DNA of 64,000 nucleotides. Source: a virus (Duplodnaviria > Heunggongvirae > Uroviricota > Caudoviricetes). A program made the translations under genes and the position numbers. Of this stretch, positions 1 through 61,333 are shown one piece after another (positions within the stretch are counted from its first letter, which is position 1; every line of letters starts with the position of its first letter). The notes under the pieces were generated by a model that saw only the letters and a list, made by a program, of their open reading frames with translations, did no database searches and was not told the DNA's origin. The DNA is taken from IMG/VR virus record IMGVR_UViG_3300043444_000502, positions 64,001-128,000 of that record. One strand, given 5' to 3'.

Positions 1-809
1 TTGATGCATTTAAAAAGTTTATTAATTATACGCTTTATAAAGAAAGAGCAGTATCTAATACTCAATTAGGTAGCGTTAGTGCATTAAATCTAAGTACACT
101 ATTATCTGGTTTAGATGGTGCTAGTAATGTATTTGCAAATCAAGATGTGGATCCTAAACAAATTCAACGTATTAAAGATATGAAATTAAATTTTTCATAT
201 GAATTATTATTAGCTGAATACTTAAGTGGTTCTACAATCCACGTTGATCAATTAAAATCAGTTGTACACTTATTTTTACGCAGATGGTTTAAAGAAATTT
301 TTACAGATAATCGTCAAATGGTATTATTAAATCTTACAAATGAAAGATTCCAAAAAACATTTGATTATACAGAAGATGATTTTAATATTAATGCAAAAAA
401 TCCATTAAGTAATATTTCTGCATTAAAATATTATGCAGATGAAACAATTTGGGATACGCCAACTGACTTATCTAGTGGAGTATATGGTATTTGCAAACTT
501 GAAGATTTATCACAAGATCAAATTAATGGATTACGTGATACTATTTTATCGGTATTCACTAATTTTGAAGGTATGTTAATTGATAATAATAACTTATCAA
601 TTATGAATTGGTTAGAATATGCTGTTGCTGATTCTATTACTAAAGAACAATTAGATCAAATTTTATCACATGTGATTAAACATCCATTTGATACATGTTT
701 AGTTCCTAGATTTGATTTCCAAAATGTTAATTTCCCATTTATTTTAGATTGTCTAAAAAAGAAAAATAATGCTCAAGGAGCTGAGTTATCAGTTTATAAG
801 TTGATTTAA
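1..809 (+). CDS. Hypothetical protein, 5'-truncated (frame is open from position 3: DAFKKFINYTL...); first gene of the rSAM cluster
   Basis: The frame of ORF 147..809 has no stop codon back to the window edge; no recognisable motif. Confidence 0.75.
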   Translation, partial: DAFKKFINYTLYKERAVSNTQLGSVSALNLSTLLSGLDGASNVFANQDVDPKQIQRIKDMKLNFSYELLLAEYLSGSTIHVDQLKSVVHLFLRRWFKEIFTDNRQMVLLNLTNERFQKTFDYTEDDFNINAKNPLSNISALKYYADETIWDTPTDLSSGVYGICKLEDLSQDQINGLRDTILSVFTNFEGMLIDNNNLSIMNWLEYAVADSITKEQLDQILSHVIKHPFDTCLVPRFDFQNVNFPFILDCLKKKNNAQGAELSVYKLI

Positions 810-810
810 A

Positions 811-1881
811 ATGCGTGATTTTATTATTGAAAAGAAACGTGATCCTGAACAAGAATATACGCTTCATTTATTTGAACATTGCAATCTAAGATGTTCATTT
901 TGCTGGCAAGACCATGAAAATAAAGCAGGGTTGGATACAGTAATTGATAAATTAGATCCTATTGAACTATTCCTTAAAACGGAACAGCGCCACTCTGTAG
1001 TATTCAATGCTATGGGTGGCGAAGTTTTTTCCGATGAAATATTTGATGAAAAACTTTTGCAATCATATAAAGATTTATCATGGGGCATTAAAGAGTTAGG
1101 AAAAAAATATAATAAACTCGTTAAAATTAATTGGGTTACAAACTTAGTAACTCATAAAATTGATTATATTGAAGATTTACTAAATTATTCAAAAACTATT
1201 GGTTTAGAAGCACAATTAGTTACATCATATGATCCGCGCGGAAGATTTAATATAAATCAGTTCGAAGTTTTTAAAAAGAATATGGAATATTTTGGCAAAA
1301 GAATCACATGCATTAGTATGTTATTAAATGCACCAAATATTGAATACATCTTAAAAGATAAAGATTATTATTTCAAAAAGCTTTATAATGAAGGTTATTA
1401 CATATATTTTGATTATTATATGCCAGATGAATCAGCTGAATTTCAAGCTCCATCTGACATTCAATTAAAAAATGTTTTTAAACATTTAATAGATAATTAT
1501 CCTAATGTTCATCCAATATCTGACTGGATTAACAATGATAAAAATTATATTTCATGCAGAACTAGTAAATTGGTTTTAGCTGATGGAACAATCTGTAATT
1601 GCGGTAATTTAGTACAAGACGAAAAAGTTATTAAATTTTATTCATCTAAAATAGAAAAGATGGATAATTCAACCATTGAAAATAATTTTTTACAAAAATA
1701 TAATTGTGCTTCATGTGAATATTTGGATAGATGTACATTAAGTTGTTTTATGCAACATGATTATAAATTTAGGGAAGAACTTGATGAGTGTGTCTACAAA
1801 CTTACGCACAGATATATCGATGATGTTAGATTACAGCGAAAAGCCAACACCTCTATCGATAGTCCCTCCAAATCATATTGA
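811..1881 (+). CDS. Radical SAM protein with SPASM-like C-terminal Cys cluster
   Basis: CxxxCxxC (HCNLRCSFC), GGE motif, C-terminal CNCG...CASCEYLDRCTLSC. Confidence 0.9.
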   Translation: MRDFIIEKKRDPEQEYTLHLFEHCNLRCSFCWQDHENKAGLDTVIDKLDPIELFLKTEQRHSVVFNAMGGEVFSDEIFDEKLLQSYKDLSWGIKELGKKYNKLVKINWVTNLVTHKIDYIEDLLNYSKTIGLEAQLVTSYDPRGRFNINQFEVFKKNMEYFGKRITCISMLLNAPNIEYILKDKDYYFKKLYNEGYYIYFDYYMPDESAEFQAPSDIQLKNVFKHLIDNYPNVHPISDWINNDKNYISCRTSKLVLADGTICNCGNLVQDEKVIKFYSSKIEKMDNSTIENNFLQKYNCASCEYLDRCTLSCFMQHDYKFREELDECVYKLTHRYIDDVRLQRKANTSIDSPSKSY

Positions 1882-2383
1882 AGTATCTTTAGATACTGTA
1901 CCAACAAATTATCCGTATTTACCTAGGATTTGTTCTAGACAAGGATATGTTTTTATGTGGCATACAAATAAAAATGAATATCCAAATTTGTATCAAGTAT
2001 CCCAAAATTGTAAAACTGAATCTCAGTGGTTTACTACTAAAGACCAAAATGGCATCGAATTAGCATTAGCACTTATTCATGAATATGACAATGAAGTAAT
2101 TATTGGATGTGTAAAAACAGCAGGTTATTTAAAAAATGAACCTAAAGAGTTTGTACATACACTTATAAAAAATGTATGGAAAGACATAATTAAAACGTTT
2201 GGACATAAAAAAATTATATGTCCAAGTAGTTCATATCTAGAATACATACATTTATTTTTAAATCAAAAGAGAATTCCACATACTCCATATTGTAAAAAAT
2301 ATATGACTAAAAATAAATTCTATAGAATTGAAAACTATTGGATTAGAGATGGACTTAATAATAAAACCGACAGAAAAGTGTAA
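1784..2383 (+). CDS. Hypothetical protein in rSAM cluster (start 1784 or 1820)
   Basis: ORF track 1757..2383; in-frame ATGs at 1784 and 1820; overlaps both flanking rSAM genes. Confidence 0.7.
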   Translation: MSVSTNLRTDISMMLDYSEKPTPLSIVPPNHIEVSLDTVPTNYPYLPRICSRQGYVFMWHTNKNEYPNLYQVSQNCKTESQWFTTKDQNGIELALALIHEYDNEVIIGCVKTAGYLKNEPKEFVHTLIKNVWKDIIKTFGHKKIICPSSSYLEYIHLFLNQKRIPHTPYCKKYMTKNKFYRIENYWIRDGLNNKTDRKV

Positions 2384-3374
2384 TTTTAAATGCACGTTTT
2401 GTTCTTCTACACATATTACTGATGATAAAAGTGTAGAACTTGATCATGCAAAAATCTTTCAGTTCTTAGAAAGATATCCCAATACAAATACTATTATTGT
2501 TAATGGAGGAGATCCATTAATGATGCCTCCAGAATATTATCAAGAAATACTAGATTGGTTAGATGAACGAAATTATAAAACTACCATAAGTTTTACAACA
2601 AATCTTTGGCCGTTTTATAAGAATCCTACAAAGTGGTCAAATATATTTTCACATAAAAGAGTTGGAGTGACTACATCATTTCAATATGGTGGAGGTCGTC
2701 TTAAAGGAGATTTAACAGAATTTAGTGAAGAAGATTTTTGGAATGTTTCGAATTTATTTGTAACATATTTTGCTTATAGACCTAACTTTATCTCAGTTAT
2801 TACAGAAGAAAATGAACATCTTGCAATTAAAAACGTTGAACTTGCAAAAAAGATGAACACAGAATGTAAATTAAATTATGCGATGTCTTCAGGACCTCCT
2901 GTAAAATTTAAAGGTATTATTATGGGTCAAGAAGGTAAACCATATCTTCTTGCAAAGATCTATGAAATTTATGTTGAAATTTGGAAACGCGGATTAGCTC
3001 CTTGGGAGTTTAATACTAAACAAATGATGCAACGATTAAAGGGTCATGCAACATGTTGTCCACAAAATCGTGATTGTGATTCTGGTATCAGAGTTCTTCA
3101 ACCATCTGGAGATTATTATTCATGCGGTGCATTTGGAGATGATAGGCAATATCCAATTAATTTCTACAAAGAAATGAATGGAGAATTTATTCAACCATTA
3201 AAGCATCAGTTTGAATTACAAACAATGACTCCTAATTGTTACGGTTGTTCTATGTTCGATATATGTAATGGTTGTAAAAAAACAATCAAAGATCACAAAG
3301 ATTACAATTTAACAGAAATACATTGCAAAAAAATGAAATCATTAGCTCAGGATATAATTTATGCTAATAACTGA
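2349..3374 (+). CDS. Radical SAM/SPASM protein (anaerobic sulfatase maturase-like architecture)
   Basis: MDLIIKPTEKCNFKCTFC, NGGDPL, SPASM-like CCPQNRDC...YSC...CYGCSMFDICNGC...HC; ATG at 2349. Confidence 0.92.
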   Translation: MDLIIKPTEKCNFKCTFCSSTHITDDKSVELDHAKIFQFLERYPNTNTIIVNGGDPLMMPPEYYQEILDWLDERNYKTTISFTTNLWPFYKNPTKWSNIFSHKRVGVTTSFQYGGGRLKGDLTEFSEEDFWNVSNLFVTYFAYRPNFISVITEENEHLAIKNVELAKKMNTECKLNYAMSSGPPVKFKGIIMGQEGKPYLLAKIYEIYVEIWKRGLAPWEFNTKQMMQRLKGHATCCPQNRDCDSGIRVLQPSGDYYSCGAFGDDRQYPINFYKEMNGEFIQPLKHQFELQTMTPNCYGCSMFDICNGCKKTIKDHKDYNLTEIHCKKMKSLAQDIIYANN

Positions 3375-3900
3375 TATACACAATGAGTTTTTTAATAATG
3401 GTTTTTGCAAATTTAATGATCCAGAAGTATTTAAATTTTTACATGACATAGATTCTTGGGAATGGAAAAACTGGAAAGATCAAGGATTACAATTAATTAA
3501 ACGCAATCATACTATTGAATCTGCCATAATACAAACACAAAAATATATTGGTGAAAAATATATTTGTAAATTGGATGAAAATTATGTTTTGGGTGACGAG
3601 TGCGAAATAGTTAATGGAATGGATGATGCAACATTAACGTGGCATAATGACAATATTGAAGGTTATAATTTGTGTGTTTTATTATATTTTGATTCTATGG
3701 ATGAAGATATCGGTGGCATGACTCGTTTTAGAGATATTAACACTAAAAAATTGACTGGAGAATTTTATCCACAGCAATATGATGTTTCTTTTATGAATCA
3801 TTGTTTAAGATTTCAACACGTTGTAACTCCATTAATTTTAGATATGCCAAGAAGAGTTGCGTTATTTAATTATAAAATAAATGAGATTTTGACAGGATGA
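3361..3900 (+). CDS. 2OG-Fe(II) oxygenase
   Basis: HxD (WHND), GG strand motif, distal His (FQHVV) and Arg (RRVALF). Confidence 0.8.
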   Translation: MLITDIHNEFFNNGFCKFNDPEVFKFLHDIDSWEWKNWKDQGLQLIKRNHTIESAIIQTQKYIGEKYICKLDENYVLGDECEIVNGMDDATLTWHNDNIEGYNLCVLLYFDSMDEDIGGMTRFRDINTKKLTGEFYPQQYDVSFMNHCLRFQHVVTPLILDMPRRVALFNYKINEILTG

Positions 3901-4829
3901 TACTTTCAATCAATCCATGGTATTATTGTAATTTCAGATGTGAATTTTGTTATCTTACAGAAAAACAATTATCTGATAAAAAGCTTTTATCGCTTGACAA
4001 ATTAGCGAATATATTAGGCGAAATTGTTGCGCATAAACAAATTGATATGGTTGATTTATATGGCGGAGAATTGGGATTATTACCAAAGGAATATTGGAAT
4101 GATTTGATACAATTATTGCATAATTATGGAATATATGATATTAATTTAATTACTAATTTATCAATGATTAATGATATTACTATAGATGAACGAGTTTATA
4201 CATCAGTTAGTTATGATTTTAAAGCTCGTGAAGATTTTTTCAGAGTGTGGAAAAATATGGCTTTAATGAATAAACCATTTTCTATATTAATGTTAGCATC
4301 TCCAGGATTAATTAGCGAAAGCATTGACGATATAGTTTCAATGTTTAATTCTTTAAAAAATCTTGAATCTGTTGAAATTAAACCATACAGCAAAAATCAA
4401 GCCAATCAGTTTTCTATCAAAGATGATATTTACGAAGAATATGTCAAAAAATGGATATTACATAAAGATCGTAAATTTAAATTGGTTAATGAATCTCTCC
4501 TGGAATCTGTAGTAAATAGATCTAGGAATAGTTTTTCTGATGATCATGTTTATATTACACCCAATGGAAAATATGGCGTATTAGAATTTGATTTGAATGA
4601 TAATGAATATTTTTTAGAATATGATACTTTAGACGAATATTTTGCTTGGTGTGAAACTGAAAAAAAGAGAGTTTCTAAAAATAAATTCTGTAGTAGTTGC
4701 AAGTATTTTGGAAGGTGTTTATCAGAACATCTTAGAGATGTTAAAAGTTTAGATAATAGTTGTAATGGATATTATAAATTAATTGATTGGTATGAAAGAC
4801 TGGAAAATAAAACAAGAAATATATCATAG
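3897..4829 (+). CDS. Radical SAM protein with C-terminal Cys cluster
   Basis: YCNFRCEFC, YGGE, ITPNG, CSSCKYFGRC...CNG. Confidence 0.9.
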   Translation: MILSINPWYYCNFRCEFCYLTEKQLSDKKLLSLDKLANILGEIVAHKQIDMVDLYGGELGLLPKEYWNDLIQLLHNYGIYDINLITNLSMINDITIDERVYTSVSYDFKAREDFFRVWKNMALMNKPFSILMLASPGLISESIDDIVSMFNSLKNLESVEIKPYSKNQANQFSIKDDIYEEYVKKWILHKDRKFKLVNESLLESVVNRSRNSFSDDHVYITPNGKYGVLEFDLNDNEYFLEYDTLDEYFAWCETEKKRVSKNKFCSSCKYFGRCLSEHLRDVKSLDNSCNGYYKLIDWYERLENKTRNIS

Positions 4830-5190
4830 GTTGAATATTCAACATGATGATGATTTAAGTACTAAAGATATTCAAATTAGTACTAATATTATTGAAGATG
4901 CTATTAAATATTTTAATGAACGAGATCTTGGTTGGTTATATCCAGCTAAAAGTTATATGGTAGCTATATGTTATGCTAAATGGATAGCTAAAGAATTTAA
5001 TGAAAATAGAATGGATCTTTTAAATGATCCAGATTTATTACATGGTAATGATCCATATTTTGTGCCATATACACAAGATCCAGATACATATATCGGAATT
5101 TTTCAAAAGATTAATAGTTGGGATTTTGACGAATCTGCCGGAATGGTGCCAGATGTTAGATCATATTTCGAAAAAGAATTTATGTTATGA
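4792..5190 (+). CDS. Hypothetical protein in rSAM cluster
   Basis: ORF with ATG at 4792 overlapping the end of rSAM3; ATGA overlap with the next gene. Confidence 0.75.
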   Translation: MKDWKIKQEIYHRLNIQHDDDLSTKDIQISTNIIEDAIKYFNERDLGWLYPAKSYMVAICYAKWIAKEFNENRMDLLNDPDLLHGNDPYFVPYTQDPDTYIGIFQKINSWDFDESAGMVPDVRSYFEKEFML

Positions 5191-5699
5191 AGTTATATGA
5201 TCTGTGGCCAACTCGTGTAGTTAATGTAGATGTTCCATTGGACCTATGCACCAAAATTTATTCACAACATATCAATGTTCAATCTAAAGATTATGAAGAA
5301 GTCCTAGATGATAATGATAAAAGAACGTTGTTAGAATATGTGAATCGTTATTACCTGGCGGAATATGATATATGTGATGGTTGGATTAGAACTCTAACAT
5401 CTAAAGGTCATAATAATTTCGAATTGCACTGTGATAGTCATTATGGCAATCAATTGGTTGGTGTACTTCAATTGTTTGGTGATGAGGATAGAGGCGGAGA
5501 TATTAAATTATATGATCCAGCTTGGAGAAATCCTCAATGGATGTCAGATACTAAAAACAAGAATAGTAACACATTTGTAGTACCATTTAAAGCAGGTCAG
5601 TTTATTATATTCCCAGCTAATGTTTGGCATAGTGTTGAAACTTATTATGGTGAATCAAATAGAGTCACTTTAAATTTAATGTTTAGAAGAATAACATGA
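5187..5699 (+). CDS. 2OG-Fe(II) oxygenase-like protein
   Basis: HCD, GGDIKLYDP, IFPANVWHSV, RVTLN. Confidence 0.8.
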   Translation: MKLYDLWPTRVVNVDVPLDLCTKIYSQHINVQSKDYEEVLDDNDKRTLLEYVNRYYLAEYDICDGWIRTLTSKGHNNFELHCDSHYGNQLVGVLQLFGDEDRGGDIKLYDPAWRNPQWMSDTKNKNSNTFVVPFKAGQFIIFPANVWHSVETYYGESNRVTLNLMFRRIT

Positions 5700-6268
5700 T
5701 AAAACAACTTTGGCCAACATATTTCATGCAAGACACTATGGAAACTAGTATTATGCATGAAATGATATATTATCTAACTGTAGAATGTGACTTCAATAAA
5801 CCTCCATCTGATTTTGGATTAGAGAATATATTAGATAGTAAACATCCATCAGTATTAAAGTTCAAACAACAAGTTATTATTCCATCATTTAATAAGTATT
5901 TAAAAAATACCATCAATAAACAAATTGATGATTGGGCTGGATATAAAATGAAAGGTTGGTTAGCAGGAACTGGAAATGATTATAGTTTAAATTACCATAA
6001 TCATAGGGGAGCTCAAATTTCTGCAGTTTTTTATTTGTTATGTGAAGATCATAATAAAGGAGGTAATATTGCTTTTACTGATCCTAGACAAAACGCCAAT
6101 AGAGGATATGATGAAAACTTTACTCCATGGTTTAATGATGAAATTTTAAAGGTAAAATCTGGTGACATCGTAGTATTTCCAAGTTTTTTATATCATTTTG
6201 TCAGCACATATCGAGGATCTATGCGGTTGGCAATGCCTGTAGATTTATTTTTACATACTAACTCCTAG
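5696..6268 (+). CDS. 2OG-Fe(II) oxygenase-like protein
   Basis: HNH, SAVFYL, GGNIAFTDPR, VFPSFLYHFV. Confidence 0.82.
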   Translation: MIKQLWPTYFMQDTMETSIMHEMIYYLTVECDFNKPPSDFGLENILDSKHPSVLKFKQQVIIPSFNKYLKNTINKQIDDWAGYKMKGWLAGTGNDYSLNYHNHRGAQISAVFYLLCEDHNKGGNIAFTDPRQNANRGYDENFTPWFNDEILKVKSGDIVVFPSFLYHFVSTYRGSMRLAMPVDLFLHTNS

Positions 6269-6280: not shown

Positions 6281-6288
6281 TATAAATA
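6281..6288 (+). promoter_or_regulatory. T4-type late promoter TATAAATA
   Basis: Exact TATAAATA 37 nt upstream of the first structural gene; a gp55 gene is present in the window. Confidence 0.85.
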
Positions 6289-6324: not shown

Positions 6325-6657
6325 ATGGCTCAATTAGTTAACTTAGTTGTTGATCAAGGATCAGACTTTGTAGCCACCCTAGACGTTGAAGATTCTATTG
6401 GTACACCTATTGATCTTCAACCATATAATGTTAGAGGACAAATTAGAAAGACATACCAATCTTTAAATAAGGTTGAGTTTGGATGCACTAAAACAACTAA
6501 CCAGGGTGAAGTTAAACTATCTCTCACCGCAGCGCAAACTGCAGTTATGAAAGATGGTCGTTACGTTTATGATATTGAAATCGTCCACGCTACTGCAGGA
6601 ACAGTGATTCGTGTAGTAGAAGGCCAAATAACAGTAACACCAAGAGTATCGAGGTAA
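6325..6657 (+). CDS. Small virion structural protein (baseplate/fibre-associated, beta-rich)
   Basis: NLVVDQGSDF...GRYVYDIEI...RVVEGQITVTPRVSR pattern typical of T4-like structural ORFs; follows a late promoter. Confidence 0.6.
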   Translation: MAQLVNLVVDQGSDFVATLDVEDSIGTPIDLQPYNVRGQIRKTYQSLNKVEFGCTKTTNQGEVKLSLTAAQTAVMKDGRYVYDIEIVHATAGTVIRVVEGQITVTPRVSR

Positions 6658-10053: not shown

Positions 10054-13000
10054 ATGGCAGAGTTTAAACTTGGTAGATTAAAGTTCTGGTGGAAAGGTGA
10101 GTGGCAAACAGGTCATGCTTACGTCAAAGATGATGTAGTTCGCTTTGGCGGTAAGTCATACGTTTGTATCGGCTCACACAATTCCGGAATTAACGATGAG
10201 AGCTTTTATACAGCTCTTGAAACAGCTCCTTTCAAATGGGAGTTAATGACTGATGGTATTCAGTGGCAAGGCGAATGGACAACAGGCACTTACTATAAAG
10301 AAGGTGATGTTGTTAAGTTTGGTTCTGACACATATATCTGCGTCGATGGAAATACAGCTTCTGCTGATTTCATGGCTGACCAAGATGCTGGTAATTGGGA
10401 AAACTTCGTTAATGGAGTTGAACTAGAAGGCGATTGGAATTCTTCACACAATTACCAAGTTGGTGATATCGTACGTTTAGGCGGTAATACATTTATTGCT
10501 AAGCGTGACAATACGAATGCAAAACCGACTGTTAGTACAGACGACTGGGGTGTATTCGTTCATGGTTTAAAGTGGAAAGGTCAATATGCTCCTACCACAA
10601 CATATTTCCCTGGTGATGTAGTTAAAGAAGGTTCTTCTTCATATGTAGCTATTGTAGAAACAATTGGAACTGCACCATCTACAGATTTAGCTAATACTAC
10701 ATGGAATGCAGTTGCTGAAGGCGACACATCTGATGTTTTAACTACAACAGGTGATATCGCTGTTTATGGCACAACAAATATTCAACGCTTACCTGCTGGC
10801 GCCGGTAATGCAGTTCTTCAAATTGATGCAGTTTCTGGTGTTCCTGCTTGGAAGCAAGATGTTGAAATTGCAGGCGATTTGATGGTACAAGGTGATGCAC
10901 ATGTTGTACAAGGCGACGTGTATCAAGGTCCAAATGCTCAAGATTATACACAAGACGTTGATATTTTCGATGTAACATCAGAAATTACTAGTGTTACAAA
11001 ATCGGCGACTCAAGTATTCATCTATTATGCTGTTGGTTCAGCATTAGCTAATGCTAATGGTGGTTATCATATCGATATGTCAGGTGTAGCTGATCCTAAC
11101 ACATTAATGAATTCATCATTCTCTGTTGATAGCAATAATACAACTAATCGTGTAATTACTATTACAGTCGCAGGTTTAACTGGAACTGGTACAGTTAATT
11201 TAACTGGTGCTACAGTTTCTTTATATGGTCCAAATGCATATGCAGGTATGACTGATGCATCTGGCGTATTCGTTGGTAATGCTGATTCATTTGTACAATT
11301 TGCTCTTAAGAATACAAATAACGGCACTGGTGCTTCTACTGACTTAATCGTTTATGCTGATAACGGTGATAATTCATCTGGTTGGATGGATATGGGTATC
11401 ACTTCATCACAATTCGATAATCCTGACTTTACAGTTACTGGTCCAAACGATGGTTATATTTTCATGTCTGCTCCTACTGGAACAGCAGGTAAAGGTGACT
11501 TGATTCTTGGTACTGGTGACGGTGGTCAACACAATGACATTGTAATGTTTACTGGTGGTTTTGATGCTGCTAACGTAAAGATGAGATTGATTGGTACAGC
11601 TCGTCCAGAAATTTCAGAATCAACAGGTATGCCAACTGGTCGTACAATCGAACCAGGCGTTGAAGTATATTTAACTTCAGTCGCAGAAAACTGGGATGAA
11701 GGTGCACTTCGTGTTGTTGGCGGTCTTGGTGTTCAAGGTAATATCATTACGAAGGGTGATCTTCGTGCTGAAATGGGTGTTATTTGCCAAGGTTCAAACG
11801 CTAAGAAATTAACAGAAGATGACTATGTTTACCCAGGTTATGTTGGTTTAACAAATCCTTCTGCAATTATGACAGGTAATGCAAACTCATTTGTACAAAT
11901 GTCATTGAAAAACTTTAGTACTGGCGATTTAGCTTCTACTGACTTAATTCTTTATTCTTCAGCCGGTGATAATAACTCTGGTTGGATCGATATGGGTATC
12001 TGTTCTGAGAACTATGATGATCCATCATTCGGTGTAACAGGTCCTGGTGACGGTTACATTTTTATGTCAGCTAAAGAAGGTTCTACAACTGAATTAGGTA
12101 ACTTATACGTTTCAACATCATCTAATGGTGTTCAAAATGATATCGTATTCTCAACTGGTGGTTTTGAAGATAGTTCGTATGAACGTATGCGCATTATTGG
12201 TTCAGCACGACCAGGCAAACAAGCTGGTGTTGAAATTTATTCTTCAACAAATTCAACAAGTACTACAACAGGTGCTTTACGTGTTAACGGTGGTATTGGT
12301 TTACAAGGTAACTTAAACGTTGGTGGTGATGTTAATATTAATGGTAACACAACTATCCAAGGTACAATTGTTATTGCCGGTGGTTCAACAACTGTTACAT
12401 CTCAAAACTTAGCTGTTCAAGATCCGATGATTTTCTGTGCAGACGGTAACTCTGCAGACATCGTTGATATGGGTGTTGTTGGTTCATATCGTCTTGCGCC
12501 AGATTCATACACAAGCGTTGATTTAGTAGGAGCTACATTTGCTGCTGCAGGAGAAACGCTATATATCACTAAAACTGCTCATGGTGCAACAAATTTAGAT
12601 CGTATGACTATTAGCAGTGCTAATAAAACTGAATATAATGGTACATACGAAACTATTACTATTGTAGACGCAAATACTATCACAGTACAAAAAATTGGCG
12701 CTACATGGAATGGTCCAGTTACAGCAACTGCAACATTAGGCGTATTTGTGAATGGTTTACGTTATGCAGGTTTAGTGCGTGATCACGTTGATGGTCGCTT
12801 TAAGTTATTCACTGCATATCAAGTTTCTAATAAACCTACAACTGTAATTAATCAAACTGATGCTCAAGATGCATTCTTAGAATTAGGTGCAATCAAAGTT
12901 ACTAATACTACAGCGTCATCAAGTTATACAACTGGTGCGGTAATTGTTAGTGGCGGCGTGGGTGTTTCTGGTGCGATGTATGTACAAAATGCATTATATT

Positions 13001-13329
13001 GCGGCAGCGATATTACAGCATGGTATTCATCTGATAGTCGCTTAAAAGATAATGTTAAACCTATTGAAGGCGCATTAGATAAGATTTCTAAAATTGGTGG
13101 TTATGAGTTCGACTGGAACGCAACTGCTAAAGAACAATTCCCAGATCGTGAAACACATGATATCGGTGTGATTGCTCAAGAAATTCAAGCAGTACAACCA
13201 GAAGTTGTTGTTGAACGTGATAACGGTTATTTAGCTGTTAACTATGAGAAGCTTGTTCCACTATTAATTCAAGGTATTAAGGAACTACAAGAGGAAGTTA
13301 AAGCTCTTCGTGCAAAAATTGGAGAATAA
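10054..13329 (+). CDS. Long tail fibre: four N-terminal CBM5/12-like repeats, internal 200-aa duplication, C-terminal intramolecular chaperone (peptidase S74)
   Basis: Four WxGxW...Y..GDVV repeats; STTTGALRVNGGIG motifs; SDSRLKDNVKPI...GVIAQE...VNYEKLVPLLIQGIKEL. Confidence 0.88.
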   Translation: MAEFKLGRLKFWWKGEWQTGHAYVKDDVVRFGGKSYVCIGSHNSGINDESFYTALETAPFKWELMTDGIQWQGEWTTGTYYKEGDVVKFGSDTYICVDGNTASADFMADQDAGNWENFVNGVELEGDWNSSHNYQVGDIVRLGGNTFIAKRDNTNAKPTVSTDDWGVFVHGLKWKGQYAPTTTYFPGDVVKEGSSSYVAIVETIGTAPSTDLANTTWNAVAEGDTSDVLTTTGDIAVYGTTNIQRLPAGAGNAVLQIDAVSGVPAWKQDVEIAGDLMVQGDAHVVQGDVYQGPNAQDYTQDVDIFDVTSEITSVTKSATQVFIYYAVGSALANANGGYHIDMSGVADPNTLMNSSFSVDSNNTTNRVITITVAGLTGTGTVNLTGATVSLYGPNAYAGMTDASGVFVGNADSFVQFALKNTNNGTGASTDLIVYADNGDNSSGWMDMGITSSQFDNPDFTVTGPNDGYIFMSAPTGTAGKGDLILGTGDGGQHNDIVMFTGGFDAANVKMRLIGTARPEISESTGMPTGRTIEPGVEVYLTSVAENWDEGALRVVGGLGVQGNIITKGDLRAEMGVICQGSNAKKLTEDDYVYPGYVGLTNPSAIMTGNANSFVQMSLKNFSTGDLASTDLILYSSAGDNNSGWIDMGICSENYDDPSFGVTGPGDGYIFMSAKEGSTTELGNLYVSTSSNGVQNDIVFSTGGFEDSSYERMRIIGSARPGKQAGVEIYSSTNSTSTTTGALRVNGGIGLQGNLNVGGDVNINGNTTIQGTIVIAGGSTTVTSQNLAVQDPMIFCADGNSADIVDMGVVGSYRLAPDSYTSVDLVGATFAAAGETLYITKTAHGATNLDRMTISSANKTEYNGTYETITIVDANTITVQKIGATWNGPVTATATLGVFVNGLRYAGLVRDHVDGRFKLFTAYQVSNKPTTVINQTDAQDAFLELGAIKVTNTTASSSYTTGAVIVSGGVGVSGAMYVQNALYCGSDITAWYSSDSRLKDNVKPIEGALDKISKIGGYEFDWNATAKEQFPDRETHDIGVIAQEIQAVQPEVVVERDNGYLAVNYEKLVPLLIQGIKELQEEVKALRAKIGE

Positions 13330-14019: not shown

Positions 14020-14685
14020 ATGTCTATTAAATTAGGTCAAGCAGGTGTAGTATATCCAGATGGCGTAGCACAATCAACTAAATATGATACTTCGCTAGAT
14101 AGAGGTAAGGTTATTAGAGTTGACTTCTGGACTAGTAATGCTACGTGGAATAAACCAGCGGGTTGCAGAAAAATTTTCGTACAAGTAATTGGCGGCGGTG
14201 GTGGCGGTTGTGGCCACTGTGAAGCTGGTGGTGCTGGCGGTTATGCAGAAAAATTAATCGATGTTACTGGTATAGATAGTGTATCAGTAACAGTTGGTGG
14301 TGGTGGAGATGGTCGTAACTATCATCAAGGTTGCGGTGGCGGCGGTACAACATCATTTGGATCATATCTATCAGCATCTGGTGGTAATGGTGCAAATACT
14401 TGGGGTTCTCATACTGGCGGTCATGGCGGTGTAGGTTCTGGTGGTGACGTTAATTTACACGGCGGCGGAGGTCGTTCACATGGTGATCAAGGCCAATCTA
14501 AAGGTGGCGAAGGTTATTTTGGTGGAGCTAGTGCATCAGGACATCATGGCGGCAATTTCTACTCACACTACGCCGAAGGTTTAAATCATTGTCCTCCAGG
14601 TACAGGAGGTTCAGGAGAGTGGACATCACATTCTCGTGGTGCGTATGGTGTACAAGGTTGCTGTATCGTATATAATTATTCTTAA
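14020..14685 (+). CDS. Glycine-rich adhesin-like protein, paralog 2
   Basis: Colinear with paralog 1 (YPDG, TWNKPAG, GGGGGCGH, GGVGSGGDVNL). Confidence 0.8.
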   Translation: MSIKLGQAGVVYPDGVAQSTKYDTSLDRGKVIRVDFWTSNATWNKPAGCRKIFVQVIGGGGGGCGHCEAGGAGGYAEKLIDVTGIDSVSVTVGGGGDGRNYHQGCGGGGTTSFGSYLSASGGNGANTWGSHTGGHGGVGSGGDVNLHGGGGRSHGDQGQSKGGEGYFGGASASGHHGGNFYSHYAEGLNHCPPGTGGSGEWTSHSRGAYGVQGCCIVYNYS

Positions 14686-14697
14686 GAAGATAAAGTT

Positions 14698-15360
14698 ATG
14701 TCAGTAAAATTAGGTCAAACAAATATTACGTACCCAGACGGTACTACGCAAGCAGCTAAATATACATCTGCAGATGATAAAGGTAATTTACTAAGTATTC
14801 AATCATGGACTAGTAATGGTACATGGACAAAACAAGCTGGTGTAAGAAGCATTCGTGTTATGTTAGTTGGTGGCGGTGGTGGTGGATCTGGTCATGGTCA
14901 ATCTGGTGGTGCTGGCGGTTATTCTGAAAAAAGAATCGACGTATCATCTTGGGCTGATGGCACTACAGTAAGCGTCACAATTGGTGATGAAGGCGGTGGC
15001 GCACATTCAAATAACTCAGGCGGTCAAGGTGGCACAACATCATTTGGTTCATATTTGTCTGCAACAGGTGGTCGAGGCGCTAATCAAGATTGGGGTCATT
15101 GCGGTGGTCATGGTGGCGTAGGTTCTGGCGGCGACATCAATCTTCGTGGTGGTGGTGCATCAGGACATGATAACCGCGGAGGTCGCGGTGGTGCATCATT
15201 CTTCGGCGGTTCTAAATTCTCAGGTTGGCCAAATCACCATTTCTCACATCAACATGAAGGACATGTTCCTCCAGGTGCTGGTGGGTGTGGTGAACACGTT
15301 AATCATTCGCGCGGTGCGCATGGTGCAAGAGGTATCTGTATCGTATATAACTATAGTTAA
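14698..15360 (+). CDS. Glycine-rich adhesin-like protein, paralog 3
   Basis: Colinear with paralogs 1 and 2; His-rich loop NHHFSHQHEGH. Confidence 0.8.
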   Translation: MSVKLGQTNITYPDGTTQAAKYTSADDKGNLLSIQSWTSNGTWTKQAGVRSIRVMLVGGGGGGSGHGQSGGAGGYSEKRIDVSSWADGTTVSVTIGDEGGGAHSNNSGGQGGTTSFGSYLSATGGRGANQDWGHCGGHGGVGSGGDINLRGGGASGHDNRGGRGGASFFGGSKFSGWPNHHFSHQHEGHVPPGAGGCGEHVNHSRGAHGARGICIVYNYS

Positions 15361-15390
15361 TAGTTATTTTTTTATTATAAAGGTTATATA

Positions 15391-17013
15391 ATGCAAGTTA
15401 AAAGTGTCTTAATTGTTGGTGGTGGTAGTTCAGGATGGATGACAGCTGCAGCGATTAAAAAACAATTGCCACATATTGATATTACATTAGTTGAATCTGA
15501 TAAAGTTCCAACTATTGGAGTGGGCGAATCAACAATTGGTCAAATCAACAGTTTTATGATGGCTGTTGGTTTAAAAGATAAAGATCATGAATGGATGCCT
15601 AAATGTAATGCTACATATAAAACATCCATTAGATTTACAGATTTCAGAGAAAAAAATGAAAAGCCTAATACTTTTCATTATCCATTTGGAATATTTGATT
15701 TAACTGACAAAGAACGTGGTGCGATGGATTGGTTCTATATGCAATTAGACGATCCATCTATTCCTCCAGAAAATTTTGCTGAATTTTATCATGATCACGT
15801 TATCATGGCAAATCAGATGAAATTTACTGATAACAAAGATCATGAAATTAGAATGTTTAATTTTAAGTTTGATACTGCATATCATATGGATGCAGCGTTA
15901 TTTGGACAATACTTAAAAAATAATATTTGTATTCCTGAAGGTGTTAAACATATTGTTGATGATGTTACAGGAGTAATTCAAAATGAAGATGGTTATGTAA
16001 CTGGTGTTACAACGGTAACAAATGGTGTATTAAAAGCTGACCTATTTGTTGATTGTACTGGTTTTAAATCTATGTTATTAGAAGGTGCTATGGGAGCAGA
16101 GTTTGTTTCTTTCCATGACACGCTAATGAATGATAGTGCAATTGCTACAATTATTCCATATCTAGACAAAGATAAAGAAATGTCTAGTGTAACAAACTGT
16201 ACAGCAATTGATGCTGGTTGGGTTTGGAATATTCCATTATATAATCGAATCGGCACAGGTTATGTGTATTCTTCAAAGTTTGCAACTAAAGAAGAAGCTG
16301 AAGCACAATTTAGAAAACATTTGGCTTCAGATAGAATGGATTATGTCGATGAACGTTCTAAAGAACGTGCTGAACAAGCAGAATTTAGACATATTAAAAT
16401 TAAACATGGATGTCATAGACGTTCTTGGATTAAAAACGTAGTAGGTGTTGGTTTAGCTAATGGGTTTATTGAACCATTAGAATCCACTGGTCTTATGTTA
16501 ACGCATGAAGCAATTATGAAATTAATTGATGTGTTAGACATGAGAGATGGCTATGTAAATCAATATGATATTGATACATTCAATTTTACAATGTTTGATC
16601 AAGTAAATGGATTTAAAGAATTTATTTCTTTACATTATACTCTTTCTAAGAGAAATGATACTCCATATTGGAAACATGTAACTGAAGGTTTTACATATTC
16701 CAATGAAATGATTGAATGGAAACCTAAAATTAGAAATCCATATACAGATTTAGCATATAGAAATTTAGTAAATCACACATATGGTCCAGATCAGGGCGGT
16801 TTAATTTATATTGCAGCTGGTCATGGTTATAATCCATTATCTAAGCGTTGGATTGATGATGAAGCTCAACGCATTAATATAAATATGGGATATGATATAA
16901 AGAAAACTAGGAAGTTGTGGGAAGATCACGTTAAAGAGTTACAAATAACTTTAGACAAACTTCCGACACATTATCAATGGTTAAAACAAAATTATTACAA
17001 TAATCAGGAGTAA
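15391..17013 (+). CDS. Flavin-dependent (tryptophan) halogenase family protein
   Basis: GGGSSG FAD motif, IGVGEST, ATYK (PrnA K79-equivalent), WVWNIP (WxWxIP), FIEPLESTG. Confidence 0.9.
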   Translation: MQVKSVLIVGGGSSGWMTAAAIKKQLPHIDITLVESDKVPTIGVGESTIGQINSFMMAVGLKDKDHEWMPKCNATYKTSIRFTDFREKNEKPNTFHYPFGIFDLTDKERGAMDWFYMQLDDPSIPPENFAEFYHDHVIMANQMKFTDNKDHEIRMFNFKFDTAYHMDAALFGQYLKNNICIPEGVKHIVDDVTGVIQNEDGYVTGVTTVTNGVLKADLFVDCTGFKSMLLEGAMGAEFVSFHDTLMNDSAIATIIPYLDKDKEMSSVTNCTAIDAGWVWNIPLYNRIGTGYVYSSKFATKEEAEAQFRKHLASDRMDYVDERSKERAEQAEFRHIKIKHGCHRRSWIKNVVGVGLANGFIEPLESTGLMLTHEAIMKLIDVLDMRDGYVNQYDIDTFNFTMFDQVNGFKEFISLHYTLSKRNDTPYWKHVTEGFTYSNEMIEWKPKIRNPYTDLAYRNLVNHTYGPDQGGLIYIAAGHGYNPLSKRWIDDEAQRININMGYDIKKTRKLWEDHVKELQITLDKLPTHYQWLKQNYYNNQE

Positions 17014-47899: not shown

Positions 47900-49051
47900 A
47901 TGAAGCAAGAAATTAAAACAGCATTCGTCAAAACTCTTGGCGATAAATATCCTGGTCGATCAGTATTCGATGTAAAAGAACTCGTCGATCATGCTGAAGA
48001 AATGGGTCTAGGTTACCCGAACTTTATCACTAAACCAGAAAATCGAGTTGGTCGTGGTAAATACCAAATTCAAATGTTGGCAGCAGTTGTGCCACTTAAA
48101 AAGCCTGTTGCAGAAACGTCTGCACAGAATCAAGTTATTCAAACGGTATTTGATCAAGTGAAAATTGAAGTTCCAGAAAAAGATAAAACTTACGTATCGT
48201 GGGGATTCTTTCGAGACGTAAAGCAAATCATTGAATCAATGGCATTCTATCCTGTGTTTATTGCAGGTTTGTCAGGTAATGGTAAGACAATGATGGTTGA
48301 ACAGGCTTGTGCTCAATCACAGCGCAAATATGTACGCGTTAACATTACAGAAGAAACTGATGAAGATGATCTTATCGGTGGTTTCCGTCTAGTGAACGGT
48401 GAAACTGTTTGGTGTGATGGTCCTGTACCTCAAGCCATGAAGCAAGGCGCAATTTGTCTAATCGACGAGATCGATCGTGGTTCTAATAAGCTTATGTGTT
48501 TGCAAGCTGTACTTGAAGGCAAACCACTATATATTAAAAAGACTGGCGCGGTTGTTCGACCAGAAACGGGTTTCAATGTGATTGCAACTGCCAACACTAA
48601 AGGTCGTGGCTCTGAAGATGGTCGCTTTACAGGTGCACGCATCCTTGATGAAGCTTTCCTAGAACGTTTTGTTGCAACTATGGATCAACCATATCCTACT
48701 ACTGCAGTAGAAAAGAAAATTGTTCTAAACGCTATGGAATCTTATGGCAAATTGGATGGTGAATTTGCAGATAACTTAGTTACATGGTCAGATATTATCC
48801 GTACTACATACAAAGATGGCGGTGTAGATGATTTAATCTCTACACGTCGTCTAGTTCATATCGCTCGTACGTATGGTATTTTTGGTGATCGCAAGAAAGC
48901 GATTGAGCTTTGCATCTCTCGCTTTGATGAAGATACACGTACAGCATTTTTAGATCTGTACACAAAGGTGGATAGTAAAGCTGTACAACCAGTTTCAGAA
49001 AAAGAATTTGTTGAAGCACCAATTCAGAACGATACTGTAACACCATTTTAA
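47900..49051 (+). CDS. MoxR/CobS-like AAA+ ATPase
   Basis: GLSGNGKT, DLIGG, LIDEIDR, ATANTKG, DEAFLERF; ATG at 47900. Confidence 0.92.
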   Translation: MKQEIKTAFVKTLGDKYPGRSVFDVKELVDHAEEMGLGYPNFITKPENRVGRGKYQIQMLAAVVPLKKPVAETSAQNQVIQTVFDQVKIEVPEKDKTYVSWGFFRDVKQIIESMAFYPVFIAGLSGNGKTMMVEQACAQSQRKYVRVNITEETDEDDLIGGFRLVNGETVWCDGPVPQAMKQGAICLIDEIDRGSNKLMCLQAVLEGKPLYIKKTGAVVRPETGFNVIATANTKGRGSEDGRFTGARILDEAFLERFVATMDQPYPTTAVEKKIVLNAMESYGKLDGEFADNLVTWSDIIRTTYKDGGVDDLISTRRLVHIARTYGIFGDRKKAIELCISRFDEDTRTAFLDLYTKVDSKAVQPVSEKEFVEAPIQNDTVTPF

Positions 49052-49061
49052 TTTTTACACC

Positions 49062-49088
49062 TAAGAGGAGTTTTCGCCCCTCCTCTTA
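49062..49088 (+). terminator. Hairpin downstream of the AAA gene
   Basis: TAAGAGGAG-N9-CTCCTCTTA. Confidence 0.55.
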
Positions 49089-49129
49089 TTCAAGGTGATA
49101 ATTGGGCGTTTTATTATGGAGCATAAACA

Positions 49130-49393
49130 ATGACAAAGCAAGCAAAACTTTTGGCGTCTTTCGAACAAGGTAATTCACTTACGGCTAAACAAATTAGCTC
49201 AATGTTCGGCTTAAAAGATCCAGCAGCATCAGTTCGCAATCTTCGCGAACAAGGTCATTGCATCTACGCTAATAGCGTTAAGTTGCATGATGGCACTGAA
49301 TCTACTAAGTATCGCCTTGGCAAACCAACACGCCGCATGGTTGCACTAGCTGCACGAATTGCTGGCGCAGGTGCGTTCACACGTAACGTTTAA
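49130..49393 (+). CDS. Small basic winged-HTH-like protein
   Basis: LTAKQI...FGLKDPAASVRNLREQGH...YRLGKPTR. Confidence 0.7.
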   Translation: MTKQAKLLASFEQGNSLTAKQISSMFGLKDPAASVRNLREQGHCIYANSVKLHDGTESTKYRLGKPTRRMVALAARIAGAGAFTRNV

Positions 49394-49404
49394 TCACGTG
49401 TACT

Positions 49405-49452
49405 GAAGAAGGGCAGAGGGACTGGACACCTACTCTGCCCATTCTTCTTTTT
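49405..49452 (+). terminator. Rho-independent terminator
   Basis: GAAGAAGGGCAGAG...CTCTGCCC-A-TTCTTC plus T run. Confidence 0.8.
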
Positions 49453-49464
49453 GTTTAAGGAATA

Positions 49465-49809
49465 ATGATGGCAAAAAAAGATAATATTGATGTTGTAAAA
49501 GCATCGCAAACTGCCACCACCGGCGGCAGAAAATTTGATGGTAATAAAACAGAATATGGTCTTTTGCCTCCTCTTGCGTTAGAGGAGATTGCAAAAGTTT
49601 TGACATTTGGTGCACAAAAATATGAGCGTGATAATTGGAAACGAGTTCCAGATTCTAAGCGAAGATATTTTGATGCATTGCAACGACATATTTGGGCATA
49701 TAAACGCGGCGAAAAATTAGATCCAGAAACCGGTTTGCATCATTTAGCCCATGCAGGTTGTTGTTTAATGTTCTTATATGAGCATGATGTCGAATATTCG
49801 AAAGAATAA
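49465..49809 (+). CDS. dATP/dGTP diphosphohydrolase N-terminal-domain (DUF5664-type) protein
   Basis: KFDGNK...LLPP..L..IAKVLTFGAQKY..DNW; RYFDALQRH; DPETGLHHLAHA. Confidence 0.85.
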   Translation: MMAKKDNIDVVKASQTATTGGRKFDGNKTEYGLLPPLALEEIAKVLTFGAQKYERDNWKRVPDSKRRYFDALQRHIWAYKRGEKLDPETGLHHLAHAGCCLMFLYEHDVEYSKE

Positions 49810-49810
49810 T

Positions 49811-49839
49811 TGTACAAATTATTTGATTTATGGTATAAT
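49811..49839 (+). promoter_or_regulatory. Early promoter TGTACA-N17-TATAAT upstream of g45
   Basis: -35 at 49811-49816, -10 at 49834-49839. Confidence 0.85.
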
Positions 49840-49866
49840 GTTATTATACAACGTTAAGGATATATT

Positions 49867-50541
49867 ATGAAACTTTCCCAAGAAACAATTGCAATTTTGA
49901 AAAATTTTGCATCTATTCAACCAAATCTAATGTTTAGAGCTGGTTCAGAATTAAAAACAATTGCAGAAGCAAAAAATATTGTTGCTAAAGCAACGATTAC
50001 TGAAACAATTCCACAAGACTTTGGCATTTATGACGTCAATGATTTCTTATCTTCATTGAGTTTGTTTAGTCAACCATCTATGACTTTCTCAGAAGATGGG
50101 AAAAATGTCTTTTTACAAGAAGGTAAATCTTCTCTAAAATATTTCTTTTCAGATGAAGCTTCATTGACATATCCTCAAAAAGATATTACAATGCCAGCAA
50201 CAGATGCATCATTTGAATTGACGGCTGAAGTTCTAAAAAATCTTCAGCGTGCTACATCGCTTTTATCAGTTTCAACAGTTGCAGTTGAAAGCGTTGGTAG
50301 TGGTATTGTTATTCGTGTACAAGATGCAAAAAATTCAACTTCTAATTCATACGGTACAGAAGTAGAAGGTAATAATAATGGCCATAATTTCAAATTCCAT
50401 TTTGATATCTCAAATTTTAAAATTCTTCCGGGAGACTATGACGTATCAATCTCTGGTAAACTCATCTCCCATTTTAAACACAAGACTCTCCCAATTGAAT
50501 ATTGGATTGCTCTTGAAAAATCATCAACATATGAGGCATAA
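49867..50541 (+). CDS. g45: Sliding clamp gp45
   Basis: MKLSQETIAILKNFASIQ, FGIYDVNDFL, YWIALE. Confidence 0.96.
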   Translation: MKLSQETIAILKNFASIQPNLMFRAGSELKTIAEAKNIVAKATITETIPQDFGIYDVNDFLSSLSLFSQPSMTFSEDGKNVFLQEGKSSLKYFFSDEASLTYPQKDITMPATDASFELTAEVLKNLQRATSLLSVSTVAVESVGSGIVIRVQDAKNSTSNSYGTEVEGNNNGHNFKFHFDISNFKILPGDYDVSISGKLISHFKHKTLPIEYWIALEKSSTYEA

Positions 50542-50543
50542 TA

Positions 50544-50729
50544 ATGAAACTATCTGATCTACAAATCGTTGTTCAAATTATTGATCTTGCAGCAGAACGA
50601 GGCATTTATAAAGGTGCTGATCTAAAAACTGTTGGAGAAGTACGTGAACGTGTAATTGAATTTATTAAAGTTAACACACCAAAGGAAGAAGGAGTTAATA
50701 CAAATGAGTCTAGCCAAACAACTGAGTAA
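50544..50729 (+). CDS. Small hypothetical protein
   Basis: 61-aa ORF (IIDLAAERG...G) between g45 and dsbA. Confidence 0.65.
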   Translation: MKLSDLQIVVQIIDLAAERGIYKGADLKTVGEVRERVIEFIKVNTPKEEGVNTNESSQTTE

Positions 50730-51277: not shown

Positions 51278-51293
51278 TATTATGGAGTTATGA

Positions 51294-52529: not shown

Positions 52530-52530
52530 T

Positions 52531-60903: not shown

Positions 60904-60932
60904 TGTACAGCAAGAAATAAATGTGGTATAAT
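60904..60932 (+). promoter_or_regulatory. Early promoter TGTACA-N17-TATAAT
   Basis: -35 at 60904-60909, -10 at 60927-60932. Confidence 0.85.
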
Positions 60933-61332: not shown

Positions 61333-61333
61333 T

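Follow-up and report, generated by a model that had tools for sequence, protein, structure and literature searches.

A phage cassette of radical SAM enzymes and oxygenases and its candidate substrate, a virion protein with a Cys- and His-rich tail

What is the target of the radical S-adenosylmethionine (SAM) enzymes and 2-oxoglutarate (2OG)-Fe(II) oxygenases that a tailed marine phage encodes in one tight operon directly ahead of its tail-fibre genes? The locus lies at the beginning of a stretch of 64,000 nucleotides (hereafter, the window), which comprises bases 64001-128000 of the 167.6-kb IMG/VR record IMGVR_UViG_3300043444_000502 (estimated completeness 99%; G000 coordinates refer to the whole record). 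An earlier note, made from the letters of the window, recognized at positions 1-6268 three radical SAM genes, three 2OG-Fe(II) oxygenase genes and three open reading frames (ORFs) of no known family, and proposed a tailoring pathway for either a virion protein or a peptide that is made on the ribosome and modified after translation (RiPP), the substrate of which might be encoded upstream or be a structural protein. The nine genes stand as described; the start of the cluster at base 1 does not, the true start being 3.06 kb upstream, at G000 60937. Positions 1-6268 are the distal part (nine genes, the back two-thirds) of a cassette of 13 genes, A to M, that spans ~9.3 kb (G000 60937-70268; Table 1) and encodes the radical SAM enzymes B, F, H and J, the Fe(II)/2OG-type oxygenases A, I, L and M, the orphans D, E, G and K, four of each, and the tailed protein C. 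The gene for B, just upstream of the window, came to light when the whole record was searched. Each of the window genes has conserved orthologues in dozens of contigs and, therefore, is a real gene rather than a chance ORF. We propose that the cassette enzymes modify the tail of C post-translationally and that C is a virion protein of the host-recognition module, and put the probability of this reading at about 0.6.

The tailed protein and the cassette enzymes

The gene for C, the candidate substrate, ends 971 nt before the window, directly behind B, and the protein of 191 aa has a Cys/His-rich tail. The tail, V-CHAS-CHSS-CHSS-RGRR, is near-invariant across phage lineages. In a synteny census of 80 IMG/VR loci that were found using H (per-gene counts below refer to the loci with enough flanking sequence, 59 or 65, and L-numbers are locus labels), the ending [VI]CHxSCHxSCHxSR[GSA]RR occurs in 45 of the 48 tailed ORFs, and the three Cys and three His of the tail are among only 8 invariant columns in an alignment of 34 sequences, the bodies of which share 41% identity on average. 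The motif is unique in the 167.6-kb genome. In an AlphaFold model of C, the body is alpha/beta and confident (pLDDT 87) and the tail flexible (pLDDT ~53); the fold has no solved relative (PDB; VIA best Z 4.0), and a fold search of BFVD returned orthologues only, among them gp170 of phage Atu_ph07.

The tail ending is shared by RSF1 gp071, Phosso gene 289 and Atu_ph07 gp170 (tail CHSSCHASCHNSRSRR). In the proteome of purified Atu_ph07 virions, gp170 is represented by 8 unique peptides with 35% coverage, and gp176, the homologue of the fibre-like g03 that precedes the cassette, is present as well, with the enzymes and K (gp165-169, gp171, gp172 and gp149) unlisted (PMC6102473, Table S5). The earlier suggestion that the substrate could be a structural protein gains support from this detection, and the suggestion of an upstream substrate from the position of C; both fit the broader proposal of a RiPP-like or virion-protein tailoring pathway. 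In the gels of the same study, gp170 (31.9 kDa) has its peak in the top band, band 1, together with proteins of 76-139 kDa, and is the sole well-supported protein below 40 kDa to do so; for most others of ~30 kDa the peak is in bands 7-8. This position suggests a high-mass form stable in sodium dodecyl sulfate; the loading buffer, as described, contained no reducing agent, so disulfides of the Cys tail could explain the band.

B, F, H and J all score above the PF04055 gathering cut-off of 29.5 bits (33.4, 29.8, 33.6 and 32.1 bits, respectively), and the motifs CX3CX2C, which lies near the N-terminus of F, H and J (C18/22/25 in H), and the SAM-binding GG[ED] are invariant across all four subfamilies. 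F, H and J also match phrog_1802 (about 1e-46 to 1e-56; F 5e-46). The conserved Cys residues, counted as radical SAM cluster plus auxiliary, are 3+8 in B, 3+9 in H, 3+6 in F and 3+4 in J. The SPASM model TIGR04085 (CX9-15GX4C...CX2CX5CX3C...C, two auxiliary 4Fe-4S clusters; cut-off 27 bits) is passed by B only (33.1 bits); H (24.3 bits) and F (20.8 bits) keep CX2CX5CX2-3C, in agreement with the SPASM-like Cys arrays originally noticed in two of the three window enzymes. The four auxiliary Cys of J suffice for one cluster (twitch-like), and the full SPASM motif does not fit. A profile of the four subfamilies aligns over the full length to 8vpo, a radical SAM-SPASM cyclopropyl synthase (PMC10878394), to the anaerobic sulfatase-maturating enzyme (anSME) 4k37 (E 1e-14) and to CteB 5wgg, with weaker matches to YydG, MoaA and SuiB. 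In NCBIfam, B comes nearest to PapB and DynA, and H to DynA; next are anSME, HxsB/HxsC, cyclophane synthases and the SCIFF maturase, all with scores far below the family cut-offs (H best matches DynA, at 40 bits against a cut-off of 450). Judging from these full-length profile matches and sub-cut-off scores, the four enzymes are members of the SPASM/twitch group that modifies peptides and proteins, outside its named families. Like anSME, they begin at the cluster motif and have no N-terminal recognition domain.

H is the most conserved gene of the cassette, with 55-61% identity to proteins in 15 phage records (jumbo phages of Ralstonia, Burkholderia, Agrobacterium, Sinorhizobium and Pseudomonas). 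One-to-one orthologues of all four enzymes were found by tblastn in RSF1, Phosso and Atu_ph07 (identity 48% for B, 31-36% for F, 60% for H and 50% for J), and the paralogues are only ~20-30% alike. In a FastTree phylogeny of 78 radical SAM proteins, B, F, H and J form four clades (SH-like support 0.93-1.0; 1.0 for F and H), each including T4-like, Atu_ph07/Phosso (Rak2-like), RSF1 (phiKZ-like) and Bdellovibrionota members, so that the four are old, non-redundant paralogues.

Some carriers have further radical SAM paralogues. There are six radical SAM genes in DT01 (L131:6642-10875; pPa_SNUABM_DT01 48641-52874), and RSF1 gp074 (L006:7662-8765), a hypothetical protein by annotation, has a SPASM-like Cys array at its end and joins proteins of Bdellovibrionota and L026 in a fifth clade. 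The radical SAM cluster of the Ralstonia phages RP12 and RP31 (PMC5468394) is a different one and was dropped.

Two of the oxygenases of the window, L (32.9 bits) and M (42.7 bits), pass the 27-bit cut-off of PF13759 (2OG-FeII_Oxy_5), a family defined by the iron triad HxD/E...H and a basic 2OG-binding residue; M carries a variant triad, H-N-H...H instead of HxD. I falls below all Pfam cut-offs (PF13640, 18.9 bits against 27), with H95, D97, H153 and R164 kept in at least 31 of 32 orthologues.

The three unassigned ORFs of positions 1-6268 are E, G and K. E has no match in Pfam, NCBIfam or PDB sequences, G none in PDB or Pfam, and profiles of D, E and G found no match among PDB sequences; C, D and K have no NCBIfam match. 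E was also considered as a degenerate radical SAM protein and rejected (hhalign probability 0.7%). Orthologues of G share an invariant M10 and 20 invariant columns.

K matches the same 15 phage records as H, and a K profile run against 1.84 billion representatives gave 280 members at E<=0.001 and 209 at E<=1e-10. Among the 150 best K representatives, 7 are fusions with a radical SAM protein, which is of the J type every time; the order is J-K in six (P0002, P0034, P0089, P0091, P0139 and P0140) and K-J in one (P0123). Four of the 7 fusions were looked up on contigs, and three of these (P0002, P0034 and P0123) are open in translation table 11 and stand in cassette context, P0002 on two contigs from different samples and P0034 and P0123 on one each. 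In addition, J carries an L-type oxygenase domain at its C-terminus in L081-L083, which represent one lineage. These J-K and J-L fusions indicate that J, K and L, which are consecutive (window 3897-5699), constitute one functional module.

We infer that K is a dedicated partner domain of J, by analogy with HxsD, the partner of HxsC (PMC13128918). The K model is confident (pLDDT 93), with no solved relative found by Foldseek against PDB or by VIA (best Z 3.3), and the AFDB search gave its own orthologue only; the VIA rows are weak and winged-helix-like (Z up to 3.3), so that a RiPP recognition element (RRE) is neither indicated nor ruled out. A prediction of the J+K complex scored 0.00, with K poorly folded when no alignment was supplied, and is no evidence either way.

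The fourth fusion looked up, P0089 (L133:98-1330), is open only when TAG is read as Gln: 19 in-frame TAG codons are spread along the whole gene, so its genome is probably recoded, and the cassette thus occurs also in a probably stop-codon-recoded phage. On the contigs with the P0002 fusion, NifU-like and IscA-like Fe-S assembly genes are located ~1.2 kb downstream of the cassette (L134:8511-8921, L135:4509-5232) and may be a phage-borne cluster supply for its radical SAM enzymes.

Genomic setting, carriers and co-variation

T4-type baseplate genes lie upstream of the window (gp8-like; PF09215, phrog_438), as does the gene for a 2163-aa DUF4815 protein. The gp8 homologue is 31-35% identical to its counterparts in Pelagibacter phage HTVC008M and cyanomyoviruses, which identifies the source as an uncultured T4-like marine myovirus. 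In pelagimyophages, the island that follows the DUF4815 (VrlC) gene is a hypervariable 'host recognition cluster', and radical SAM cassettes have been noted there as variable additions, not the same from one close relative to the next (Zaragoza-Solas et al., mSystems 2020, PMC7029224). The cassette described here opens the host-recognition cluster of a T4-like, pelagimyophage-like virus. Its G+C content is 27-29%, against ~35% genome-wide.

Across the 80 census loci, the genes follow the order g03-A-B-C-D-E-F-(G)-H-(I)-J-K-(L)-M-N. The core consists of B (58/59), F (56/59), D (54/59), C (51/59), J (61/65) and K (59/65), and the less frequent genes are M (42/65), N (41/65), g03 (37/59), E (37/59), A (32/59), I (26/65), G (16/59) and L (9/65); of the nine genes at positions 1-6268, four (F, H, J and K) thus count as core and five (E, G, I, L and M) as accessory. 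The cultured carriers fall into four groups, namely Atu_ph07, RSF1/RSL2/FLC/S13, Phosso and pPa_SNUABM_DT01. An order cupin-rSAM-tailed protein-...-rSAM-rSAM-oxygenase-rSAM-...-K (rSAM, radical SAM) is common to RSF1, Phosso, Atu_ph07 and DT01. A recurrent link to fibre genes, the lack of which would have spoken against the proposal of the earlier note, is present: homologues have fibre genes next to them in T4-like phages, in Rak2-like phages and in a metagenome-assembled genome (MAG) of Bdellovibrio. In RSF1, an HNH endonuclease gene and two dihydrofolate reductase genes are located between the F and H orthologues (80329-81618; L006:10330-11619); this block looks like a mobile insertion outside the pathway.

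The tail and the enzymes co-vary. Every tailed locus of the census that has F, J or K also has the RxRR tail end, and B and H are present wherever the tail is. In a clade of 27 loci and in L062, the order is g01-g02-g03-B-C-D-x-x-H, the tail ends in CHGS[IL] without RxRR, and F, J and K are absent. This pattern fits a division of labour in which B and H would act on the CHxS repeats, and F and J-K would act on or require the basic end. The clade was considered as a minimal B-C-D-H cassette and this was rejected: the one locus scanned, L104, has after H a gene for a 629-aa B12-binding radical SAM protein and an AspH-like hydroxylase gene (14082-16641), followed by an S74 fibre gene, that is, an alternative enzyme set.

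A scan for the tail pattern across one genome per prokaryotic species detected the tail with the cassette on 5 MAG contigs of Bdellovibrionota, along with some contigs that are probably mis-binned phage. The Bdellovibrionaceae locus L094 is flanked by the cellular genes for FabH and an acyl-CoA synthetase, with no fibre gene; some 2 kb downstream of its cassette, L094 also has a gene for a radical SAM protein that binds B12 (L094:18563-20233). In another Bdellovibrio MAG locus, three genes for fibre-like proteins with S74 domains precede the cassette; such fibres serve Bdellovibrio as prey-recognition adhesins (PMC10769870, where radical SAM genes go unmentioned). The Bdellovibrionota loci may be of prophage origin.

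A putative tail-modification pathway and its alternatives

In the scheme that we consider, B and H would probably introduce radical cross-links (thioether or His/Ser carbon links) into the CHxS repeats, F and the J-K(-L) module would perform further steps that depend on the RxRR end, the oxygenases would hydroxylate His, Arg or other residues of the tail, and matured C would then be assembled into the virion near the fibres. The identity of C as the substrate, the roles assigned enzyme by enzyme and the function of the product are proposals drawn from the relationships described above. The chemistries considered, be they thioether or His/Ser carbon cross-links, oxidation of the formylglycine type or hydroxylation of His or Arg, are suggested by analogy with known systems.

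One of these is the HXS antiphage system, with HxsA, a protein with His-Xaa-Ser repeats, the radical SAM enzymes HxsB and HxsC and the small partner HxsD; HxsC binds HxsD, and the modification maps to SHRSS (Li et al., Nat Commun 2026, PMC13128918). Both systems combine several radical SAM enzymes and a small partner with a folded protein that has short H-x-S repeats rich in basic residues, SHRSS corresponding to the CHSS-RGRR tail and the HxsC-HxsD pair to the inferred J-K pair. Unlike HXS, the cassette is phage-encoded, has four radical SAM paralogues plus oxygenases, starts every repeat with an invariant Cys, and would deliver its product to the virion rather than make a defence effector. 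C lacks a match to HxsA as well as a signal peptide and a peptidoglycan-binding domain, and the HXS families (TIGR03976-03979) claim none of the proteins: H reaches 29.7 bits where HxsC requires 267.9, B reaches 28.4 where HxsB requires 370, and C, D and K are without NCBIfam matches.

With anSME (TIGR03942, PDB 4K36-4K39), which oxidises a Cys or Ser in a protein motif, the enzymes share a radical SAM/SPASM architecture of ~350-370 aa and no recognition domain. The cassette has four paralogues and three repeats, in contrast to one enzyme and one site, scores in TIGR03942/PRK13758 are 35.9 (B), 29.2 (H) and 20.6 (J) bits against 349, and Pfam scans found no sulfatase gene in the locus. The sulfatase motif C/S-x-P/A-x-R resembles the last tail repeat, C-H-G/S-S-R. 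The evenly spaced Cys, C-x-x-x three times, recall the thioether-forming SPASM maturases (PapB/ranthipeptides, SCIFF, CteB and the CXXX-repeat systems TIGR04114/04115). PapB is the best NCBIfam match of B (3.6e-15, full length), weak matches to SCIFF and CXXX-repeat maturases follow, and CteB is among the solved structures closest to the cassette radical SAM profile. B stays far below both PapB (NF047865; 56 bits against 340) and TIGR04115 (22 against 350), and, unlike the PapB and CXXX systems, the cassette pairs its enzymes with a 191-aa virion protein that has no leader or recognition element and in which His and Ser are as invariant as Cys.

In the pathways for pyrroloquinoline quinone (PQQ; PqqA/PqqE/PqqD plus an oxygenase) and mycofactocin (MftA/MftC/MftB), an invariant core is processed by a SPASM enzyme with a partner that is sometimes fused to it, followed by oxidative tailoring. 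The J-K fusions, in both orders, are a counterpart of such partners; the differences are that no PqqD/RRE fold could be detected in K (best VIA Z 3.3), that no protease is recognizable and that the carrier protein stays in the virion. Nor does the cassette resemble a RiPP cluster, given that it has no short precursor, and Pfam and NCBIfam scans detected no RRE, protease or transporter family. The radical SAM cassettes of pelagimyophages occupy the same genomic place in the same kind of phage; the report on them mentions these cassettes only, and describes no substrate, gene families or function (PMC7029224).

Several points weigh against tail modification. The link from the enzymes to the tail is drawn from gene neighbourhood and co-variation, and the adjacency of C and the enzymes is not absolute since C is missing beside them in L026 and L081-L083. 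The invariant Cys3His3 tail could be simply a metal site rather than a substrate. Many of the 80 loci come from T4-like phages that are related to one another, and part of the synteny is therefore shared by descent instead of being independent; the co-variation of RxRR with F, J and K is limited to one or two lineages. The pathway role of I, L and M is made less certain by their accessory status and by the many other 2OG oxygenase genes in the genome. Furthermore, oxygen-sensitive radical SAM enzymes and O2-requiring 2OG oxygenases would have to function in one pathway in an oxic marine host.

The genomic position of the cassette could speak for the fibres themselves. The cassette lies between g03 (37/59) and the LtfC-like N (41/65) in most T4-like loci, Atu_ph07 and Phosso have a g03 homologue ahead of it, in the Bdellovibrio MAG it comes after three S74 fibre-like genes, and Cys3His3 is plausible as a metal site; accordingly, the enzymes might tailor fibres or adhesins (g03, the S74 fibre and the Gly-rich adhesins), with C as a metal-binding scaffold, chaperone or adaptor. 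We regard this as unlikely: RSF1 has the cassette without homologues of g03 or N, L094 has cellular neighbours and no fibre gene, and it is C, not the fibres, that travels with the enzymes, the fibres having no comparably invariant motif. That C is a large precursor, the tail of which is cross-linked, oxidised and cut off to yield a cofactor or natural product in the infected cell (as with PQQ, mycofactocin or a RiPP), appears quite improbable, because the scans of the cassette detected no protease or exporter family (Pfam, NCBIfam), the body of C is conserved and confidently folded, the whole protein is found in the Atu_ph07 virion (35% coverage) and the enzymes have no RiPP recognition domains. 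The precursor scenario does draw on a gene set of radical SAM/SPASM enzyme, small partner (J-K) and oxygenases like that of PQQ biosynthesis, one of the orphans D, E and G could be a protease, and an invariant core motif is typical of peptide-derived cofactors (PqqA, MftA).

Hypermodification of nucleotides or DNA, or a metabolic auxiliary pathway, is disfavoured and has, in our estimate, only a very slim chance of being correct. Radical SAM and 2OG enzymes are known in DNA modification pathways (PMC8989533), and RSF1-like phages have two dihydrofolate reductase genes within the cassette, but this pair, with the HNH endonuclease, is an insertion limited to the RSF1-like lineage, and nucleotide-metabolism genes occur in none of the 80 marine loci. 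The radical SAM profile resembles peptide and protein maturases, the cassette is placed in the structural, host-recognition region, and the homologues map to no nucleotide or cofactor pathway.

If the tail of C is indeed modified, the rebuilt (CHxS)3-RGRR tail might be a new enzyme-made group on the host-contact apparatus, common to at least three unrelated phage lineages and to predatory Bdellovibrionota and used for attacking or entering Gram-negative envelopes, an idea that we offer tentatively. Such a group could serve as a metal or redox centre derived from the protein itself, or could link C covalently to a protein of the fibre or baseplate; it might also answer, on the phage side, to the HXS gate with which bacteria control DNA entry.

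Radical SAM/SPASM enzymes that mature a Cys-rich motif at a C-terminus are known in kind; the scale and the virion target are unusual. To our knowledge, enzymatic post-translational chemistry on phage virion proteins is almost unexplored, the known cases being proteolysis, autocatalytic cross-links of the HK97 type and glycosylation. A literature search on radical SAM/SPASM enzymes and bacteriophage virions found no paper that characterises the cassette, which is merely listed or mentioned in passing (PMC7029224, PMC11898562, PMC6102473). The present analysis adds the orthology tree, a partition of the genes into core and accessory, the fusions J-K and J-L, an alternative set of enzymes in loci with the non-RxRR tail, and the gel anomaly of gp170. 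The cassette is retained by T4-like phages of the sea, by jumbo phages from soil that infect plant pathogens and Pseudomonas, and by predatory bacteria, and the expenditure of 9-15 kb, with four or more radical SAM enzymes plus oxygenases, on one small virion protein implies an important function. Should tail modification prove true, the radical SAM/SPASM field would gain a new class of substrate and, probably, new chemistry; the proposal also offers a concrete hypothesis for part of the unexplained load of 2OG oxygenases in marine myoviruses. The hypothesis is directly testable since four groups of cultured phages carry the cassette.

Gene arrangement and neighbouring features

The genes of the cassette are all on the + strand, and neighbours overlap or stand 1-2 nt apart (Table 1), which agrees with the original description of a tight operon ending 12 nt before a late-promoter motif.

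Table 1. Features of the cassette and its immediate neighbours (coordinates in the window unless prefixed G000)
Feature	Coordinates	Strand	Description
g03	G000 59854-60936		fibre-like, 360 aa, precedes A
A	G000 60937-61431	+	JmjC/cupin oxygenase; H94-D96-H134 invariant
B	G000 61409-62455	+	radical SAM enzyme 1/SPASM
C	G000 62455-63030	+	191 aa, tail VCHASCHSSCHSSRGRR; substrate candidate
D	G000 63033-63698	+	orphan
E	1..809	+	last 268 aa of a 376-aa orphan, accessory; starts at G000 63679, 321 nt before the window, the edge of which cuts the gene
F	811..1881	+	radical SAM enzyme 2; C24-C28-C31 and 6 conserved C-terminal Cys (SPASM-like); core
G	1784..2383	+	orphan, accessory; ORF opens at 1757, conserved Met at 1784
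H	2349..3374	+	radical SAM/SPASM enzyme 3; ORF opens with TTG at 2328, conserved Met at 2349
I	3361..3900	+	small, Fe(II)/2OG-oxygenase-like; accessory
J	3897..4829	+	radical SAM enzyme 4; reduced auxiliary-cluster motif C265, C268, C274, C289; core
K	4792..5190	+	132-aa orphan, core; ORF given as 4783-5190
L	5187..5699	+	2OG-Fe(II) oxygenase (PF13759); H81-x-D83...H148, R159; accessory
M	5696..6268	+	PF13759 oxygenase-like; H101-N-H103...H167, R177; frequent accessory
TATAAATA	6281..6288	+	T4-type late-promoter consensus; 12 nt past the M stop (6268), 37 nt before N
N	6325..6657	+	LtfC-like beta-sandwich (tail-fibre assembly family); phrog_1084 4e-27, phrog_3304 5e-23

The late-promoter motif TATAAATA has only two copies in 14 kb, compared with about three expected from composition, so that the motif by itself is weak evidence. 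The second copy, inside B and 200 nt before C, was rejected as not above chance in AT-rich DNA, and a scan for sigma-70-like promoters gave counts at the level of shuffled sequence (77 sites against 82.7 expected). A strong terminator-like hairpin with a 9-bp stem, 5 G-C pairs and a T-rich tail (L089:2017-2039; G000 61017-61039) lies 80 nt into the conserved cupin ORF A, just past g03 and 3 kb before the window. As an attenuator, it may reduce the read-through that passes from g03, a structural gene, into the enzyme cassette.

N comes after the cassette in most loci and heads the fibre block, which continues with a tail fibre of 1091 aa and three Gly-rich adhesin paralogues. The tail fibre (window 10054-13329) has an N-terminal carbohydrate-binding module, CBM_5_12 (5e-15), and a C-terminal S74 intramolecular chaperone domain (7e-17). 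Within the same block, straight after the adhesin paralogues, stands a gene for a full-length flavin-dependent tryptophan halogenase (window 15391-17013; PF04820 4.5e-108, phrog_2928), a possible second candidate for a virion-protein-tailoring enzyme in the host-recognition cluster.

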